From a virus (lineage: Duplodnaviria; Heunggongvirae; Uroviricota; Caudoviricetes): DNA of 7,279 nucleotides. The position numbers and the translations under genes are program-made. Below, piece by piece: positions 1 to 7,279 of this stretch (position 1 is its first letter; every line of letters begins with the position of its first letter). The notes below the pieces were generated by a model. That model was given only the letters and a program-made list of their open reading frames with translations. It was not told the origin of the DNA and ran no database searches. The DNA is taken from the IMG/VR virus record IMGVR_UViG_2529292829_000014; one strand, given 5' to 3'.

Positions 1-378
1 TTATTTCGAACAATCAGCATCCATCTCCAATCGGAGATCCAACACCATCAGCATGCCCTCCACTACGCCCTCAGCTTTCTGGAGCATCCTGCCAACCCAA
101 CAATCAGATCGCCCATGCTTACGTGCAAGCGCCATAAAAGTCATGCCGCCGACATAATAGTCCACCAATAAATCATGTAAATCGCTGTTGTTTTTTTTCA
201 GGCGAGCCATACATTCACAAATGATCATCGCGTCATCGTCACAGCATTGCGGACGAGATCTTACTTTTGAAGGAATTAATCCCTTAAAACCGGCGGCAAT
301 GGACGACCAGGTCACATCTTCATGATTATTAGCCGCCCATGCCCCCCAACGCTCAAGAACCATCTGAATATCACGCAT
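1..378 (-). CDS. Phage late antitermination protein Q (short Q type, QuuD-like), 125 aa
   Basis: Translation [26 protein letters not shown]...[17 protein letters not shown]... recognised from memory as the short Q antiterminator family. ATG at 376..378 is preceded by GGAG 7 nt upstream on the minus strand; the ORF track's 393 start is an upstream in-frame GTG. TAA stop at 1..3. Lies directly downstream of the ydfU-like gene as in Qin/DLP12-type prophages. Confidence 0.7.
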
Positions 379-395
379 CAACTTACTCCACAAAA

Positions 396-1445
396 TTAGG
401 CCAGCACACCAATTGCCAGCGCGCGATCGATAAATCGAAAAATCAGCTCCAGTTGGGAGCCATACTTCTCTTCAAATGCCACGGTATCCGTATGCAACTC
501 GTCGTGATGCTTTCTGCACAAAGGCAACACAAAGAGATCATGTGCTTTGGTTCCCATTCCGCCCTGCCCGTGACCAATCAGATGATGCGGATCGTCGGCT
601 GGCATACCGCAGCAAGCACACGGCTGTGTCTTAACCCAGCGTGTGTATTTCTCCTTAACCCAACGGTGACGTTTAGGCAGCTTCATGAAAGATTCCGGAG
701 ACTCTGGATCAACGGTGATGCTTACCACCGTCTTTTCCTGTGATGGGTTTTGTTGCTGGTGGGCGTGAGGCAACGGTGCAAGATTTTTTGTGCGCTGTTT
801 CAATATGCTGGTGGCGGTCTGCTCTCCCGGTACGATGTCGCTTTCGCGGTACACCGAGCAGTTTTTTTCCGCTGGTAATCCCAGCGAGCGACGTAATACC
901 GCTTCCGGTAGCGCGTCCGCCACCTGATTGCGGACCGCCCACCAGGATAATTCAGCCAGAGATAATTCACGCTCCTGCGTACCGCTTATTGCGTGACCGA
1001 TGACGTCAATCATCCATGCTGACAGGTTTTGATGAGCAAGTTGCTCGAGTGATTCGGATGTCTGGTCACGCAGCTGGTTGTCGCAGTGCCAGCACAACAC
1101 CATTGCGCCGGTACCATAACGGTGAATAACGGTTTCGCTGTGATGATAATCGCCGAGTGGCCACTGGCAGGATTTAATATGGCGCAACAGCCAGTCAGAC
1201 AATGCACCAGCACCACCAGCAGCACGAATTACCCGTGCGTTACTGAAAAACGGCAGCAATGTTTTGTCTTCCACCAGCGGCTGGCGAACGGCAGGAACGA
1301 CCCCGGACGGCAGATTACGCATGCTTTTCGGTTCCGGCTCCACCAGTACCCGGGTATTGTGGAATACCGGCATGGATTCACGGCCCGGCTTAACGACCAC
1401 CAGCCCGAGTTCCGGTACCAGAACAGGTCGAAGTAATACCCGCAC
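396..1445 (-). CDS. ydfU: DUF968/YdfU-like prophage protein with C-terminal Cys/His (HNH-like) metal-binding cluster, 349 aa
   Basis: 349-aa ORF with GTG start at 1445 preceded by GGAGG (minus-strand mRNA ...GGAGGUAAC GUG). C-terminal motif CACCG...HHLIGHG...CRKHHDELH. Same length and position (just upstream of Q) as YdfU of the Qin prophage; family assignment is from memory. Confidence 0.6.
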
Positions 1446-1661
1446 GTTACCTCCAGATGCGTTGCTGGAATGTACGGGACGGACTCGGTGGGCGTTCGGA
1501 GTAAGGCAATCTGACTGAGATTATCCAGTGACGGTATGTGGCGTGTTCCCCAACCAGGACGGTACGTTCACCGCGATGACATATACCAAAAGCAAAACGT
1601 TTAAAACCGAATCTGGCGCGCGTTGCTGGTTAGCCAGAAACACTGACTGATGAGGCTGACG

Positions 1662-2027
1662 ATGGAATTTAAAGATTTACCGTCTGATGTACAGAAAACA
1701 GCAGCTCATACATTGCATTCTGTGCTGCGAGAAATCGGGAAAGATATTGCAAGCGAGCCAGCAAAAGATCTGGCCCGGAAAATCAAGACCGCTTTCGTTG
1801 AGCTTTATAATGTTGGCACTGACTCTGAAACTGTCGAGACCAAGACCGTAAGTTCACCAATATTCTCACTTGAGCCAGGCGTATTATCAGGTGAAATATG
1901 CACCGAGATTTCCAGCGAACTGCTTCCGGTAATACGAGAAGCAATTTGCCGTCGCGGTTTGGATGGAAGTTACGATCATGACGTCCTGCAAGTTCTCAGG
2001 ACAATGGTGACTTCACTGGGGATTTGA
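1662..2027 (+). CDS. Hypothetical protein, 121 aa, mildly acidic, no recognisable domain
   Basis: ORF with GAGG 6 nt upstream of ATG at 1662 (an in-frame ATG at 1650 lacks an SD). No transmembrane segment or HTH recognised. Its 3' end overlaps the convergent minus-strand gene by 32 bp (1996..2027). Confidence 0.45.
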   Translation: MEFKDLPSDVQKTAAHTLHSVLREIGKDIASEPAKDLARKIKTAFVELYNVGTDSETVETKTVSSPIFSLEPGVLSGEICTEISSELLPVIREAICRRGLDGSYDHDVLQVLRTMVTSLGI

Positions 2028-2196
2028 TCCCTGCGTCCTCTAACCTTTTGATATAGCGGTCCTCCAAGAAGCGGTAAATTTTGTCGAAATCATCTTTCCC
2101 CTCTGGTTTATTCAGAGGATTACAGGACCCGTAAGTAGCGGCATACATTTTAACCGTTTTATCAAAAATATAAGAGACAAATTCTTCTTTAGTCAT
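1996..2196 (-). CDS. Hypothetical small protein, 66 aa (MTKEEFVSYIFDKTVKMYAATYGSCNPLNKPEG...), moron-like
   Basis: ATG at 2194..2196 (minus strand) preceded by a strong SD (mRNA ...AAGGAAAUCUAU AUG). The coding region looks visibly AT-richer than its neighbours by eye (not computed). Opposite orientation to the flanking operon. The 95-aa ORF-track version is an upstream GTG extension that would swallow the SD. Confidence 0.5.
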   Translation of the reverse strand: MTKEEFVSYIFDKTVKMYAATYGSCNPLNKPEGKDDFDKIYRFLEDRYIKRLEDAGIKSPVKSPLS

Positions 2197-2276
2197 ATAG
2201 ATTTCCTTCTTGGTTATTCGGGATAAGAAGGATACCACCTCGCCTGACGTGGTTAAAAGCAGGCACACAACACGAA

Positions 2277-2336
2277 AGCGCACGGCGAAGTTCGTCTCAC
2301 TGTACGGTGTCGTTAAATTTAATTCGACCGTGCGCT
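2277..2336 (+). repeat. Perfect 9-bp inverted repeat (AGCGCACGG / CCGTGCGCT) enclosing 42 nt, part of a hairpin-dense region upstream of dicF
   Basis: Arms at 2277..2285 and 2328..2336 are exact reverse complements. Further hairpins follow: CCGCG/CGCGG (2352..2367), CGGGG/CCCCG (2380..2398), GTTGTCA/TGACAAC (2412..2444). Confidence 0.35.
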
Positions 2337-2471
2337 TCCGGTTGTGGCAACCCGCGAAATGGCGCGGCGGTAAGTATGGCGGGGTTATTCCTTCCCCGTT
2401 GAGGACACCGAGTTGTCAGGTTGACCATACGCTTAAGTGACAACCCCGCTGCAACGCCCTCTGTTATCAAT

Positions 2472-2529
2472 TTTCTGGTGACGTTTGGCGGTATCAGTTT
2501 TACTCCGTGACTGCTCTGCCGCCGTTTTT
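2472..2529 (+). ncRNA. dicF: DicF small regulatory RNA (prophage-encoded antisense inhibitor of ftsZ translation)
   Basis: Sequence TTTCTGGTGACGTTTGGCGGTATCAGTTTTACTCCGTGACTGCTCTGCCGCC followed by a T5 tract matches my memory of the 53-nt E. coli DicF RNA almost base for base. It sits immediately upstream of a 62-aa dicB-like ORF, as in the Qin dicB operon. Confidence 0.8.
2487..2529 (+). terminator. Rho-independent terminator forming the DicF 3' end
   Basis: Stem GGCGGTA (2487..2493) pairs with 2517..2523 (ending CCGCC), with an inner CAGT/ACTG helix, followed by G plus TTTTT (2525..2529). No A-tract precedes it, so it is oriented for the plus strand. Confidence 0.55.
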
Positions 2530-2622
2530 AAAGTGAATTTTGTGATGCGGTGAATGCGGCTAAGCGCACGCGGAACAGTTAAAACCAAAAACAGTGTTAT
2601 GGGTGGATTCTCTGTATCCGGC

Positions 2623-2643
2623 GTTAATTGTTAACTGGTTAAC
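2623..2643 (+). promoter_or_regulatory. Three spaced copies of the palindromic hexamer GTTAA(C/T); candidate operator or promoter element upstream of dicB
   Basis: GTTAAT at 2623..2628, GTTAAC at 2630..2635 and 2638..2643, about 55-75 bp upstream of the dicB-like start. A CCTGG-N5-CCAGG inverted repeat follows at 2649..2663. No convincing sigma70 -35/-10 pair could be assigned. Confidence 0.3.
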
Positions 2644-2698
2644 GTCACCTGGAGGCACCAGGCACTGCATCACAAAATTCATTGTTGAGGACGCGATA

Positions 2699-2887
2699 AT
2701 GAAAACGTTATTACCAAACGTTAATACGTCTGAAGGTTGTTTTGAAATTGGTGTCACTATCAGTAACCCTGTATTTACTGAAGATGCCATTAACAAGAGA
2801 AAACAAGAACGGGAGCTATTAAATAAAATATGCATTGTTTCAATGCTGGCTCGTTTACGTCTGATGCCAAAAGGATGTGCACAATGA
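2699..2887 (+). CDS. dicB: DicB-like cell-division inhibitor, 62 aa
   Basis: ATG at 2699 preceded by GAGGA 7 nt upstream. 62 aa, the length of Qin DicB, and located directly downstream of dicF. The ORF-track 97-aa version starts at an upstream GTG without an SD. Confidence 0.7.
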   Translation: MKTLLPNVNTSEGCFEIGVTISNPVFTEDAINKRKQERELLNKICIVSMLARLRLMPKGCAQ

Positions 2888-3075
2888 ATTCAGCATTTGC
2901 GCTTGTTCTGACAGTTTTTCTTGTTTCCGGAGAGCCAGTTGATATTGCAGTCAGTGTTCACAAGACAATGCAGGAGTGTATGACTGCAGCAACCGAACAG
3001 AAAATTCCCGGTAACTGTTACCCGGTCGATAAAGTTATTCACCAGGATAATATCGAAATCCCGGCAGGTCTTTAA
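2884..3075 (+). CDS. ydfD: YdfD-like small membrane protein (lysis protein on overexpression), 63 aa
   Basis: ATGA start/stop overlap with dicB at 2884..2887 (translational coupling). N-terminal hydrophobic segment AFALVLTVFLVSG. 63 aa, the length and position of Qin YdfD. The ORF-track 81-aa version is an in-frame upstream extension. Confidence 0.65.
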   Translation: MNSAFALVLTVFLVSGEPVDIAVSVHKTMQECMTAATEQKIPGNCYPVDKVIHQDNIEIPAGL

Positions 3076-3168
3076 AACAGTTCCGTAATAAATATCCGGT
3101 TTCATTCTTATATGCCAGCAATGGCAGGGATTTGTTCATCCTTAAATCTGTCATGAGGTTAAAACAAA

Positions 3169-5640
3169 ATGAGTAAAGTCTTTATTTGCGCCGCTATTCC
3201 TGACGAACTGGCAACAAGGGAAGAAGGCGCTGTGGCTGTAGCCACAGCCATTGAAGCTGGCGACGAACGCCGTGCTCGAGCAAAATTTCACTGGCAGTTC
3301 CTGGAACATTATCCGGCTGCTCAGGACTGCGCTTATAAATTTATTGTCTGCGAGGATAAACCTGGCATACCCCGCCCTGCCCTCGATTCATGGGATGCTG
3401 AATATATGCAGGAAAACCGCTGGGATGAGGAGTCTGCTTCTTTTGTCCCGGTTGAGACTAAATCCGATCCGATGAACGTCACTTTTGACAAGCTGGCCCC
3501 TGAAGTACAGAACGCTGTCATGGTTAAGTTCGACACATGTGAAAACATCACCGTTGATATGGTTATTAGCGCACAGGAATTGTTGCAGGAAGACATGGCA
3601 ACATTCGACGGACATATCGTTGAAGCGTTGATGAAAATGCCAGAAGTTAACGCCATGTTTCCGGAGCTTAAGTTGCACGCCATTGGGTGGGTTAAGCATA
3701 AATGTATTCCTGGTGCTAAATGGCCCGAAATTCAGGCAGAGATGCGCATCTGGAAAAAACGTCGCGAAGGTGAACGCAAGGAAACCGGAAAATACACGTC
3801 TGTTGTTGATCTCGCCCGCACCAGAGCCAATCAACAGTACACTGAAAATTCAACAGGAAAAATCAGCCCGGTCATTGCTGCCATTCATCGCGAATACAAG
3901 CAGACATGGAAAACACTGGATGACGAACTGGCCTACGCTCTCTGGCCTGGTGATGTGGTTGCCGGAAACATTGACGGCAGCATCCATCGCTGGGCAAAAA
4001 AAGAAGTTATCGACAACGACCGCGAAGACTGGAAGCGTATCTCGGCATCAATGCGCAAACAGCCTGATGCCCTTCGCTACGCCCGCCAAACTATTTTTGG
4101 CCTTGTCCGTGAGCGTCCGATCGACATTCACAAAGATCCCGTAGCACTGAACAAATATATCTGCGAATACCTGACGACAAAGGGCGTGTTTGAGAATGAA
4201 GAAACAGACCTGGGCACTGTTGATGTTCTCCAGTCATCAGAAACACAAACTGATGCAGTGGAAACTGAGGTATCTGATATCCCAAAAAATGAAACCGCGC
4301 CGGAAGCTGAACCATCTGTAGAGCGTGAGGGGCCGTTCTATTTCCTCTTCGCAGATAAGGACGGAGAAAAATACGGTCGCGCAAACAAACTTTCTGGTCT
4401 GGATAAGGCACTGGCTGCTGGCGCCACTGAAATCACAAAAGAAGAATATTTTGCCCGAAAAAATGGCACATACACGGGCTTACCGCAAAATGTAGATACC
4501 GCTGAAGATTCAGAACAACCAGAACCGATAAAAGTTACCGCTGACGAAGTAAACAAAATTATGCAGGCAGCCAATATCAGCCAGCCTGACGCCGATAAGT
4601 TGCTTGCTGCATCACGTGGTGAATTTGTTGAAGGGATTAGTGACCCGAATGATCCGAAATGGGTTAAGGGGATCCAGACCCGCGATTCTGTGAACCAGAA
4701 CCAGCATGAATCGGAACGGAACTACCAAAAAGCGGAACAAAACAGCCCAAATGCGTTACAAAACGAGCCAGAAACGAAACAGCCTGAACCAGTGGCGCAA
4801 CAGGAAGTGGAAAAAGTCTGCACCGCCTGCGGTCAGACCGGCGGCGGCAACTGCCCTGATTGTGGCGCGGTGATGGGCGACGCAACATACCAGGAAACAT
4901 TCGATGAAGAGTATCAGGTTGAAGTTCAGGAAGATGATCCGGAGGAAATGGAAGGCGCTGAACATCCACACAAGGAGAACACTGGCGGCAATCAGCATCA
5001 CAATAGCGATAATGAAACTGGCGAGACGGCAGATCACTCAATTAAGGTGAACGGTCATCACGAAATCACATCCACCAGCAGGACGTGTGACCATCTAATG
5101 ATCGACCTTGAAACCATGGGAAAAAATCCTGATGCCCCGATCATCTCAATAGGTGCAATATTTTTCGATCCGCAAACCGGAGATATGGGACCGGAATTTA
5201 GTAAGACTATCGATCTGGAAACTGCTGGCGGAGTCATTGATCGGGACACCATTAAATGGTGGCTTAAGCAATCACGCGAAGCGCAATCTGCCATTATGAC
5301 CGATGAAATCCCGTTAGATGATGCACTGTTACAATTGCGGGAATTTATCGACGAAAACTCCGGTGAATTTTTTGTTCAGGTTTGGGGAAATGGAGCCAAC
5401 TTCGACAACACGATTTTGCGCCGTTCATACGAACGGCAGGGGATCCCCTGCCCGTGGCGTTACTACAACGATCGCGATGTACGCACAATCGTTGAGCTGG
5501 GGAAAGCCATAGACTTCGATGCCAGAACGGCTATTCCATTCGAAGGTGAGCGCCATAATGCACTTGATGACGCCCGTTACCAGGCAAAATACGTTTCAGT
5601 TATCTGGCAAAAACTGATCCCGAGTCAGGCTGATTCTTAA
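3169..5640 (+). CDS. RecE-like (annotated elsewhere as exodeoxyribonuclease VIII-like) multidomain protein, 823 aa, with C-terminal DnaQ-like DEDDh 3'-5' exonuclease domain
   Basis: Long ORF with GAGG upstream of ATG at 3169. C-terminal 180 aa (from 5098) carry Exo I MIDLET, Exo II GNGANFD and Exo III HNALDDARYQAKY motifs. Middle region is acidic and low-complexity with a CxxC-x7-CxxC zinc ribbon (CTACGQTGGGNCPDCG, 4819..4863). Sits in the exo/recE slot upstream of xis-int; it may be the intact counterpart of the IS-truncated ydfE of K-12 Qin (inference). Confidence 0.8.
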   Translation: MSKVFICAAIPDELATREEGAVAVATAIEAGDERRARAKFHWQFLEHYPAAQDCAYKFIVCEDKPGIPRPALDSWDAEYMQENRWDEESASFVPVETKSDPMNVTFDKLAPEVQNAVMVKFDTCENITVDMVISAQELLQEDMATFDGHIVEALMKMPEVNAMFPELKLHAIGWVKHKCIPGAKWPEIQAEMRIWKKRREGERKETGKYTSVVDLARTRANQQYTENSTGKISPVIAAIHREYKQTWKTLDDELAYALWPGDVVAGNIDGSIHRWAKKEVIDNDREDWKRISASMRKQPDALRYARQTIFGLVRERPIDIHKDPVALNKYICEYLTTKGVFENEETDLGTVDVLQSSETQTDAVETEVSDIPKNETAPEAEPSVEREGPFYFLFADKDGEKYGRANKLSGLDKALAAGATEITKEEYFARKNGTYTGLPQNVDTAEDSEQPEPIKVTADEVNKIMQAANISQPDADKLLAASRGEFVEGISDPNDPKWVKGIQTRDSVNQNQHESERNYQKAEQNSPNALQNEPETKQPEPVAQQEVEKVCTACGQTGGGNCPDCGAVMGDATYQETFDEEYQVEVQEDDPEEMEGAEHPHKENTGGNQHHNSDNETGETADHSIKVNGHHEITSTSRTCDHLMIDLETMGKNPDAPIISIGAIFFDPQTGDMGPEFSKTIDLETAGGVIDRDTIKWWLKQSREAQSAIMTDEIPLDDALLQLREFIDENSGEFFVQVWGNGANFDNTILRRSYERQGIPCPWRYYNDRDVRTIVELGKAIDFDARTAIPFEGERHNALDDARYQAKYVSVIWQKLIPSQADS

Positions 5641-5651
5641 TGTTCAACTGT

Positions 5652-5683
5652 CGCCGGTTGTGACTGGTATTCTGCAACCGGCG
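5652..5683 (+). promoter_or_regulatory. Perfect 9-bp stem (CGCCGGTTG / CAACCGGCG) with 14-nt loop between the recE-like stop and xis; no U-tract
   Basis: Arms at 5652..5660 and 5675..5683 are exact reverse complements. Begins 12 nt after the recE-like stop. No T-run on either strand, so it is not a canonical intrinsic terminator. Confidence 0.4.
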
Positions 5684-5712
5684 CTCGTCTGATGTAAGAG
5701 ATAAAGAAATCG

Positions 5713-5964
5713 ATGAGCGAAGTAATCATGATTGTCTCTCCCGGCAAATGGGTATCCGAAGAGCAGTTAATTGCGCTGAAAGGAATAAAAAAAGGTACGT
5801 TAAAAAAGGCCCGGGAAAAATCGTTTATGGAAGGAAGGGAATATAAGCATGTCGCTCATGACGGTATGCCATGGGATAACAGTCCATGCTTTTACAACCT
5901 GGAAGAAATTGATCGCTGGATTGAGCGCCAGGCATCAGCGAGACCAAGACGTCATCTTACTTGA
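5713..5964 (+). CDS. Excisionase-like protein (lambdoid prophage Xis-like, DUF1233 type), 83 aa
   Basis: Small ORF immediately upstream of the integrase. The sequence ...KWVSEEQLIALKGIKKGTLKKAREKSFMEGREYKHVAHDGMPW... resembles the excisionase-like proteins found upstream of int in E. coli lambdoid prophages (from memory). Start could instead be the ATG at 5728. Confidence 0.6.
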   Translation: MSEVIMIVSPGKWVSEEQLIALKGIKKGTLKKAREKSFMEGREYKHVAHDGMPWDNSPCFYNLEEIDRWIERQASARPRRHLT

Positions 5965-5983
5965 CTAAAAGCCACACTAACTA

Positions 5984-7279
5984 ATGAGAGAAGTTGAAAT
6001 GAAATATCCGACAGGCGTGGAAAACCATGGAGGGAAATTACGTATCTGGTTTGTTTATAAAGGCGTAAGAGTCAGGGAAAATCTGGGGGTTCCTGACACA
6101 GCAAAAAACAGGCGCGTTGCAGGTGAACTACGCTCCTCTGTTTGTTACGCAATAAAAACTGGTGTTTTCGACTATGCAAAACAGTTTCCCTCCTCACGCA
6201 ATCTGGAAAAATTTGGTGAGGCCCGACAAGATTTAACCATAAAAGAACTGGCTGAAAAATTTCTGGCACTGAAAGAAAATGAAGTCGCCAAAACATCACT
6301 CAACACATACCGTGCCGTCATCAAAAATATCCTGAGCATAATCGGTGAAAAAAATCTTGCCTCATCGATTAATAAAGAAAAATTACTGGAGGTTCGTAAA
6401 GAGCTACTGACTGGATACCAGATCCCCAAAAGTAACTATATTGTTACACAACCAGGGAGATCGGCTGTAACTGTAAATAATTACATGACAAATCTTAACG
6501 CCGTGTTCCAGTTTGGTGTTGATAACGGTTACCTGGCAGATAATCCGTTTAAGGGGATCTCGCCATTAAAGGAATCAAGAACCATTCCGGATCCTCTTTC
6601 GCGGGAGGAATTTATCCGTCTTATCGATGCGTGCAGAAATCAGCAAGCAAAAAATTTATGGTGTGTTTCTGTTTATACTGGCGTTCGCCCTGGTGAGCTG
6701 TGTGCACTTGGATGGGAGGACATAGATCTGAAAAATGGAACAATGATGATCAGGAGAAATTTAGCAAAAGACCGTTTCACGGTACCAAAAACACAGGCGG
6801 GAACCAATCGGGTCATTCATCTTATTAAGCCAGCAATCGACGCTCTCCGGAGTCAGATGACATTAACGAGACTGAGTAAAGAGCATATCATTGATGTTCA
6901 CCTCAGAGAGTATGGCAGAACAGAAAAACAAAAATGCACCTTTGTTTTTCAACCTGAAGTGTCAGCGAGAGTAAAAAATTATGGTGACCATTTTACCGTT
7001 GACTCAATAAGGCAGATGTGGGACGCAGCGATAAAACGTGCCGGACTCCGCCATCGAAAATCATATCAGTCGAGACATACTTATGCCTGCTGGTCGCTGA
7101 CAGCTGGTGCTAACCCGGCATTTATAGCAAACCAGATGGGCCATGCAGATGCGCAAATGGTATTTCAGGTATACGGAAAATGGATGTCTGAAAACAATAA
7201 TGCACAGGTAGCTTTGTTAAATACACAGTTAAACGAGTTTGCCCCAACCATGCCCCATAACGAAGCAATAAAAAATTAA
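5984..7279 (+). CDS. Tyrosine recombinase / phage integrase with N-terminal arm-binding domain (IntR/DUF3596-like), complete, 431 aa
   Basis: N-terminal YPTGVENHGGKLRIWFVYKGVRVRENLG arm-binding motif. Catalytic signature: Arg in TGVRPGEL (6686..6688), RHTYA box (7073..7078), Tyr nucleophile in GHADAQMVFQVYGKW (7172..7174). TAA stop is at the window end. The true start may be the ATG at 5999 (MKYPTG...). Confidence 0.9.
   Translation: MREVEMKYPTGVENHGGKLRIWFVYKGVRVRENLGVPDTAKNRRVAGELRSSVCYAIKTGVFDYAKQFPSSRNLEKFGEARQDLTIKELAEKFLALKENEVAKTSLNTYRAVIKNILSIIGEKNLASSINKEKLLEVRKELLTGYQIPKSNYIVTQPGRSAVTVNNYMTNLNAVFQFGVDNGYLADNPFKGISPLKESRTIPDPLSREEFIRLIDACRNQQAKNLWCVSVYTGVRPGELCALGWEDIDLKNGTMMIRRNLAKDRFTVPKTQAGTNRVIHLIKPAIDALRSQMTLTRLSKEHIIDVHLREYGRTEKQKCTFVFQPEVSARVKNYGDHFTVDSIRQMWDAAIKRAGLRHRKSYQSRHTYACWSLTAGANPAFIANQMGHADAQMVFQVYGKWMSENNNAQVALLNTQLNEFAPTMPHNEAIKN

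Follow-up and report, generated by a model that had tools for sequence, protein, structure and literature searches.

Loss of the dicA/dicC immunity switch together with the dicBp promoter in a rare deletion derivative of an Escherichia coli Qin-type prophage

The DNA considered here is a stretch of 7,279 base pairs (bp) from the IMG/VR virus record IMGVR_UViG_2529292829_000014 (hereafter the window), which carries genes for a Q-type antiterminator, YdfU, the small RNA DicF, the cell-division inhibitor DicB, YdfD, an exonuclease, an excisionase (xis) and a tyrosine integrase (int). Comparison with complete genomes identifies the window as a rare, recent deletion derivative formed in situ, and the reading favored here, at a probability of roughly 85%, is that of an ordinary decayed Qin-type prophage of Escherichia coli in which one deletion took the repressor gene and dicBp, the promoter of the dicF-dicB operon, together. 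In one small lineage of E. coli the whole switch was removed by a single illegitimate deletion, made at a microhomology of 4 bp, in which rem (antirepressor), dicC (cro-like), dicA (cI-like), the operators, dicBp, hokD and any parental replication genes were lost at once. The toxic DicF RNA, DicB and YdfD are thereby left with no known promoter, and int and xis deprived of the PL-like promoter that would read into them; the surviving genes look intact since the deletion is recent and has not been followed by further hits.

Over all its 7279 bp the window matches E. coli O68:H12 strain 97.3 (NZ_CP061758) and five other complete genomes at 100% identity, the carriers of this allele being strains 97.3, 027_SK3, ABW_S38, KFu015, I4 and E2. 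In the 47-kb locus around the window in strain 97.3 (L001) the prophage is inserted between a truncated ydfJ (ydfJ', 5667-6950) and rspB (27467-28486), with the end of int at 27279, which is the insertion arrangement of Qin in K-12. Membership of the Qin type is further indicated by the dicF-dicB-ydfD block and by ydfU lying beside Q with essQ, rrrQ and rzpQ beyond it; the Qin feature that the element lacks is the dicA/dicC immunity locus with dicBp upstream of ydfA.

The evidence for a deletion comes from relatives at the same ydfJ'/rspB site, whose flanks are 99.4-99.9% identical to those of the window and which carry 4.0-5.3 kb of extra DNA exactly at window position 1536; the window is therefore a deletion derivative rather than a chimera or a mosaic of two phages. 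In PI12 the DNA between the two fused points comprises the full small gene adjoining ydfU, rem, hokD, several small open reading frames (ORFs), dicC, a gene for a helix-turn-helix (HTH) repressor of 135 amino acids (aa) and full ydfA. The corresponding DNA in LR-31 and HCM-25C-3 holds rem, hokD, queH, a DUF977 gene, an O-like gene, ydaT and part of dicC, and the metagenome contig L019 combines the gene series of the LR-31 type with an intact dicC-dicA-ydfA. Compared with PI12 the window lacks 4026 bp; measured against the LR-31/L019 type and against K-12, the shortfall is about 5.3 kb and about 4.15 kb, respectively. Over the 1532 bp of the left flank there are 2-4 single-nucleotide polymorphisms (SNPs) between the window and its nearest relatives, and over the 5743 bp of the right flank 6 SNPs separate it from the metagenome contig L038, whose sequence at the breakpoint is intact.

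Alignment to K-12 Qin and these relatives, a step suggested in an earlier note made from the window sequence alone, places the breakpoints to the base. The left parent reads CCAGTGACGG before the break and TAGTCGAG after it (in short form, GTGACGG followed by TAGTCGAG), the right parent AATCTCTGG before and TATGTGGCG after (TCTCTGG followed by TATGTGGCG), and the junction in the window reads CCAGTGACGGTATGTGGCG, the four bases GGTA (1533-1536, assigned to neither strand) being common to both parents according to the alignments and the breakpoint table. The junction joins the last 29 codons of the small gene adjoining ydfU (1447-1536, minus strand; phrog_1212 positions 38-66 of 66) to codon 14 of ydfA (DUF1391), which continues to its stop on the plus strand (1537-1650; PF07151 12-47 of 48, phrog_751 32-69 of 70). 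The first of these remnants is labeled "incomplete, missing N-terminus" in RefSeq and is a complete gene of 92 aa in PI12, TA8571 and LR-31. The second has no promoter, no ribosome-binding site and none of its first 13 codons; the RefSeq ORF call at this place is of 40 aa and starts at the GTG at 1528, and intact ydfA encodes 50 aa, as seen in the alignment to the right parent and in L019. The junction occurs in 6 of 5426 complete E. coli genomes, with a 100-bp stretch across it 100% identical among them, and the intact region from promoter to ydfA in at least 2745 of the same 5426.

The earlier note had observed that Q and int are only about 5.6 kb apart with no cI/cro, N or O/P genes between them, and ORF positions and family scans bear this out: the distance from the start of Q to the start of int is about 5.6 kb, and neither the annotated ORFs of the window (scanned with Pfam, PHROGs and NCBIfam) nor ten further ORFs of at least 40 aa in 1264-3309 (scanned with Pfam) match any family of HTH repressors or of Cro, N, O or P proteins. 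Nor did these profile hidden Markov model searches disclose a hidden repressor, replication or N gene in the window; a repressor or replication gene was the finding that, according to that note, would have refuted its claim. The 817-bp segment that carries immunity in L019 is without a match throughout the 47-kb locus L001, and replication genes (O/P or equivalents), which are present in the relatives NT1F25 and LR-31, are neither found in the window scans nor annotated across the whole prophage in L001. The same note had measured the element against a normal lambdoid prophage, a comparison that is correct as to the absent genes and overstates how odd their absence is, K-12 Qin itself being devoid of N and O/P; only the absence of dicA/dicC therefore sets the window apart from the reference Qin.

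What the loss of this region would mean for the cell can be judged from work on K-12, where Ragunathan et al. (2023, PMC10448788) identified dicBp, located upstream of ydfA, as the major promoter of the ydfABC-dicF-dicB-ydfDE operon and detected no other. DicA represses dicBp, and deletion of dicA makes the promoter constitutive (22-fold, with 100% "on" colonies); dicBF+ cells that switch dicBp on form no colonies, and Rem acts as antirepressor of the switch (PMC10448788). The dicA gene has been scored as essential but is variably present (PMC11481867). In the intact allele the sole plus-strand promoter-like site upstream of ydfA is TTGACG-17-TAAATT (L003 6419-6447), a site that has palindromic operators on either side and is situated between the repressor gene and ydfA, within the deleted DNA. 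A consensus scan gave no plus-strand promoter-like site in window 1300-3200. Two other sources of transcription were considered, namely a new promoter formed at the junction, rejected for lack of any plus-strand consensus match in 1300-3200, and a read-in promoter, and between the lipocalin gene upstream of the window and Q there is a terminator-like hairpin. Every other dicA-less allele examined (NT1F25/LR-31, TA8571, MB06233 and A10) is also without dicBp.

The dicF, dicB and ydfD genes are thus probably silent following the loss of the promoter, and this joint loss of repressor and promoter is probably, in the light of the published biology, the reason why the cell tolerates the absence of DicA: a toxic operon left promoterless would make the loss of an otherwise essential repressor tolerable. 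Excision, too, is probably poor or absent. Several points weigh against this account. The silence of the operon is deduced from the loss of its promoter; an older study, as cited in PMC10448788, suggested an internal promoter upstream of dicB; read-through from upstream DNA is compatible with the result of the consensus scan; and some other prophage in the genome may provide a DicA-type repressor in trans. Furthermore, L038, the closest intact relative, ends 67 bp to the left of the breakpoint, which brackets the length and content of the deleted DNA without fixing them, and the sequence comparisons may not discriminate whether selection acts on the retained genes.

The allele is a natural illustration of a rule of K-12 genetics, that DicA is dispensable only if the toxic dicF-dicB promoter is lost too, and the six strains are natural switch-less variants of Qin that keep DicF, DicB, YdfD, the exonuclease, xis and int and could be used as controls in work on these genes. 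On its own the deletion is one more route of decay of a well-known cryptic prophage; the element is an object of a known kind, and its sequence is already in RefSeq with standard annotation.

Among the alternatives, the one that survives best, improbable as it is, views the window as a streamlined module under selection, in which the host keeps int-xis, the exonuclease, DicF/DicB and Q, the dic genes are served by another promoter, and the benefit could be phage exclusion by DicB or mobilization by a helper phage. The retained ORFs are indeed all full length, candidate att cores flank the prophage, DicB has been reported (PMC6832061) to protect against some phages, and the promoter upstream of dicB suggested by the older study (cited in PMC10448788) could serve the dic genes. 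Against selection, the allele is found in only 6 of the 5426 genomes and is 100% identical among them; an allele that is both rare and invariant is therefore young, and intact ORFs are expected in it without selection. Moreover, the scan finds no plus-strand promoter-like site upstream of dicF-dicB, and the element has no packaging or replication function.

A mosaic joint at 1536, produced by recombination between two different lambdoid phages, is less probable still. Lambdoid prophages are mosaic, K-12 Qin has nothing that corresponds to the Q module (1-395) or to the segment 1642-2254, and SNP patterns are reshuffled among the flanks of different alleles, all of which would suit such an origin. 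Both sides of the junction, however, are 99.4-99.9% identical to undeleted ydfJ'/rspB prophages, in which they lie in the same order and orientation 4.0-5.3 kb apart; merely 4 bp are shared at the junction, and two genes are cut in mid-gene. Genomes in which one prophage carries both flanks and the intervening DNA effectively refute this origin. The earlier note had offered deletion derivative and mosaic junction as two possibilities, and the near-identical flanks of the undeleted relatives decide for deletion at 1536, mosaicism being confined to other parts of the window (the Q module and 1642-2254 differ from K-12 Qin). Nothing was found in favor of an assembly chimera, named in the note as fatal to its claim, or of a collapsed repeat, and both are ruled out for practical purposes, since six complete genomes from different laboratories and countries agree on the same 100-bp junction within 7.3 kb of 100% identity, and a junction present in six independent assemblies is therefore not an artifact.

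The deletion favored here as the origin of the window has one feature that may lead somewhere new, namely to how junctions in mosaic prophages arise and recur: its right-hand end is reused. This end, R, is the bond G^TATGTGGCGTG (G^TATGTGG) at ydfA codon 13/14, between window positions 1534 and 1535, with TATGTGGCGTGTTCCCCAACC at its right. It is a junction in the loci L002, L005, L006, L011, L012, L044, L175 and L180, and at least four different deletions have their right-hand end there. One of these deletions, a junction of a truncated dicC (dicC') to the truncated ydfA (ydfA'), is found in 14 genomes of the NT1F25 and LR-31 groups and lies on two dicC haplotypes. The differences between these haplotypes are located 18, 26 and 39 bp away from the junction, and both are known in undeleted form as well; had the junction arisen once and been spread by homologous recombination, a crossover less than 18 bp from it would have been required. 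In TA8571 a point upstream of hokD is joined to ydfA' at R bluntly, with no microhomology and hence an unambiguous position. The IMG/VR contig L180 joins R to Ea22-like genes, an observation on a single contig whose junction was not found in any complete genome. NT1F25/LR-31 and TA8571 share R with the window to the base. These alleles and those of MB06233 and A10 differ from the window in left breakpoint and retained genes (dicC', the point upstream of hokD, or foreign islands), and each of the R alleles has a right flank like that of a different intact allele. The left breakpoint of the window (1536) is itself reused in NT1F25, where it is joined to queH.

If a deletion could end anywhere within about 1 kb, the chance of three or four endpoints coinciding to within 5 bp would be below 1e-6. 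Two dicA-less alleles end elsewhere, MB06233 at 33 bp to the left of R and A10 at window 2606, and selection for promoter loss therefore does not force endpoints onto R; since such selection needs only that the promoter be lost, reuse to the base needs a mechanism. Most partner sites have TA directly after the break, as R does, and joining therefore looks microhomology-driven. Searches for other features of the site were negative: no insertion sequence abuts R in 208 loci; R has no inverted-repeat partner (as in a transposon-like end) in the 47-kb locus; no Chi site occurs at R or at the partner sites, Chi octamers clustering only in ydfU; DNA folding gives weak stems rather than a strong hairpin at R, and the fold of the leader RNA is no better than that of shuffled sequences (z = +1.3); for structured RNA of the put or nut kind in the deleted leader, Rfam finds DicF alone; and the partner sites, compared by eye for longer hidden homology, share 0-4 bp. 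An informal comparison of R with the consensus sequences of invertase, gyrase, Ter and att-core sites showed no convincing resemblance. A general hot spot active in all E. coli was also rejected, because only three R junctions occur among about 194 unselected metagenome, viral and genome loci carrying the 32-mer to the right of R (about 190 intact, two with the dicC'-ydfA' junction and one with a new partner), and such events are rare.

Neither chance nor selection, insertion sequences, Chi, a hairpin or an inverted repeat accounts for the reuse of R. A tentative explanation, to which we give less than even odds, is that R is a site-specific hot spot for DNA breakage or template switching that has repeatedly seeded deletions of the immunity switch in Qin-type prophages. 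As to how, two speculative candidates may be put forward: a sequence-specific nick or pause at R, or cleavage of recombination intermediates stalled at an old boundary of heterology, in which case old junctions would beget new ones.

Further rearrangements of the same region are seen in other relatives. In MB06233 (L010 3688-5400) the immunity region has given way to foreign DNA, joined 33 bp to the left of R, with a gene for a Sll1717-family P-loop ATPase that may serve in defence. In A10 (L009 4090-4744) DicF is lost, and part of a DUF7380 gene has been attached immediately upstream of dicB; in 20AR0300 (L007 1396-2592) the DNA from the 5' end of ydfU as far as dicC is deleted, the repressor gene and full ydfA being kept. 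These two are additional, independent rearrangements of the immunity region. In L019, a palindromic operator-like motif (TGTTAGA-N5-TCTAACA) is present in three copies flanking the dicA-type gene (3885-3909, 4396-4420 and 4432-4456), and the 819-bp deletion from dicC' to ydfA' ends 137 bp and 115 bp outside these motifs.

Qin (Kim) of K-12 MG1655 (1,632,277-1,652,745) carries ydfU, DicF, dicB, ydfD, an integrase gene and a lysis and cold-shock set as the window prophage does, with 98-99% DNA identity over dicF-dicB-ydfD-ydfE' and intQ', and both elements are without N, O, P and head genes. K-12 Qin retains rem, hokD, relBE, flxA, dicC, dicA, dicBp and full ydfA (about 4.15 kb), all absent from the window, whereas most of its exonuclease gene, xis and the 5' part of int were lost in a deletion associated with IS2 and are intact in the window: the DNA match to the exonuclease gene stops at window 3935, at IS2E, and the K-12 copy is the pseudogene ydfE. 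The window is in this sense the reverse of K-12 Qin, with the switch gone and the exonuclease-xis-int arm intact. The Q genes belong to different families (125 aa in the window, the 250-aa YdfT in K-12 Qin), and K-12 Qin has no DNA match to window 1-395 or 1642-2254. Compared with the immunity regions of other lambdoid phages, the deleted DNA, with the bistable switch of DicA (cI-like) and DicC (Cro-like) and its palindromic operators (L019; PMC10448788), mirrors cI, cro, PL and PR of lambda and immC of P22, and the window holds the body of a PL-type operon alone, with neither promoter nor operators.

Within that operon, the 823-aa exonuclease gene (3169-5640, plus strand) is intact (phrog_2082 over its full length). 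Its product had been labeled RecE-like in the earlier note, and the label is right only in part. The gene occupies the same position in a PL-type operon as the gene of RecE (exonuclease VIII) of the Rac prophage, and the protein matches the non-catalytic middle of RecE (residues 247-625 against positions 272-602 of 877 of profile PRK09709), at 277 bits against a family cut-off of 1269. The RecE nuclease domain is absent, and the C-terminus carries instead a DEDDh 3'-5' exonuclease domain (PF16473, residues 642-813, E = 2.4e-67); judged from these domain matches, the protein looks like the product of a domain swap.

The remaining named ORFs of the window are likewise complete against their Pfam, PHROGs and NCBIfam families, and the statement of the same note that int, xis, the exonuclease gene, dicB, ydfD, ydfU and Q are apparently intact has held for each of them. 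On the minus strand lie the Q-type antiterminator gene (1-378; 125 aa; PF06530 1-118 of 118, E = 8e-51; RefSeq WP_001204787.1) and full-length ydfU (396-1445; 349 aa; DUF968 with an HNH-type nuclease motif; PF06147, E = 4.5e-77), the latter matching all 334 positions (1-334) of phrog_96, "HNH endonuclease". On the plus strand, the full-length DicF gene (2473-2524; Rfam RF00039, matched over model positions 1-52 of 52 at 72.5 bits, the gathering score being 48) is followed by dicB (2699-2887; cell-division inhibitor, 62 aa; PF05358 1-62 of 62; NF049927, 132.8 bits against a cut-off of 100), ydfD (2884-3075; 63 aa; PF07358 1-57 of 57; "lysis protein YdfD" in RefSeq) and, beyond the exonuclease gene, those of the excisionase (5713-5964; 83 aa; PF06806 1-69 of 70, E = 1.6e-31) and of the full-length tyrosine integrase (5999-7279; 426 aa; arm-binding domain PF12167 and catalytic domain PF00589).

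Between ydfA' and dicF are two ORFs of unknown function, one of 121 aa on the plus strand (1662-2027; phrog_33007 1-121 of 121), which has no Pfam or NCBIfam match and occupies the position of ydfB/ydfC in K-12, and an antisense ORF of 66 aa on the minus strand (1996-2196; phrog_34441 1-66 of 66; WP_000159335.1 in relatives). The antisense ORF overlaps the 3' end of the other, and the pair constitutes a different module replacing ydfB/ydfC of K-12 (1642-2254).

Full-length int, xis and other genes are no proof of a working phage, since repressor, replication, head and tail genes are absent. Besides the window genes the element contains, in L001, pinQ, fragments of tail-fibre and terminase genes, cold-shock genes, rzpQ, rrrQ and essQ, and adjoining Q is a cargo region, disrupted by IS3, with lipocalin and YbgA genes. 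The head, tail and terminase content comes to partial tail-fibre and DUF1441 (terminase small-subunit-like) fragments only. Of the equipment of an inducible lambdoid prophage the element thus lacks the repressor/cro switch, the replication genes, and the head, tail and terminase genes. An 11-bp repeat, GAAATCCATAA, stands at both edges of the 20.4-kb prophage (L001 6942-6952 at the ydfJ' edge and 27317-27327), its second copy 38 bp past the stop of int and beyond the window; about 0.1 chance matches are expected in the space searched, which makes the repeat weakly significant, and it is a plausible candidate for the att core. Around both copies the similarity extends beyond the 11 bp by a few bases in either direction.

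Downstream of Q, in the DNA adjoining window position 1 (L001 19321-20029), there are a promoter-like site and a strong hairpin on the minus strand that resembles a terminator (19879-19902). The pair resembles PR'/tR' and is followed by the convergent lipocalin gene, the YbgA gene and an AraC-type gene disrupted by IS3, not by late phage genes. An exact 32-mer of the prophage was also met in L207 (6011-6042), on a contig that has been binned as a metagenome-assembled genome of Veillonella parvula, probably in error, and is likely to come from Escherichia. Inside ydfU, five Chi octamers arranged back to back fall within 650 bp (755 and 807 on the plus strand; 1213, 1271 and 1397 on the minus strand), as compared with 13 in the whole 47-kb locus and four in ydfU of K-12.

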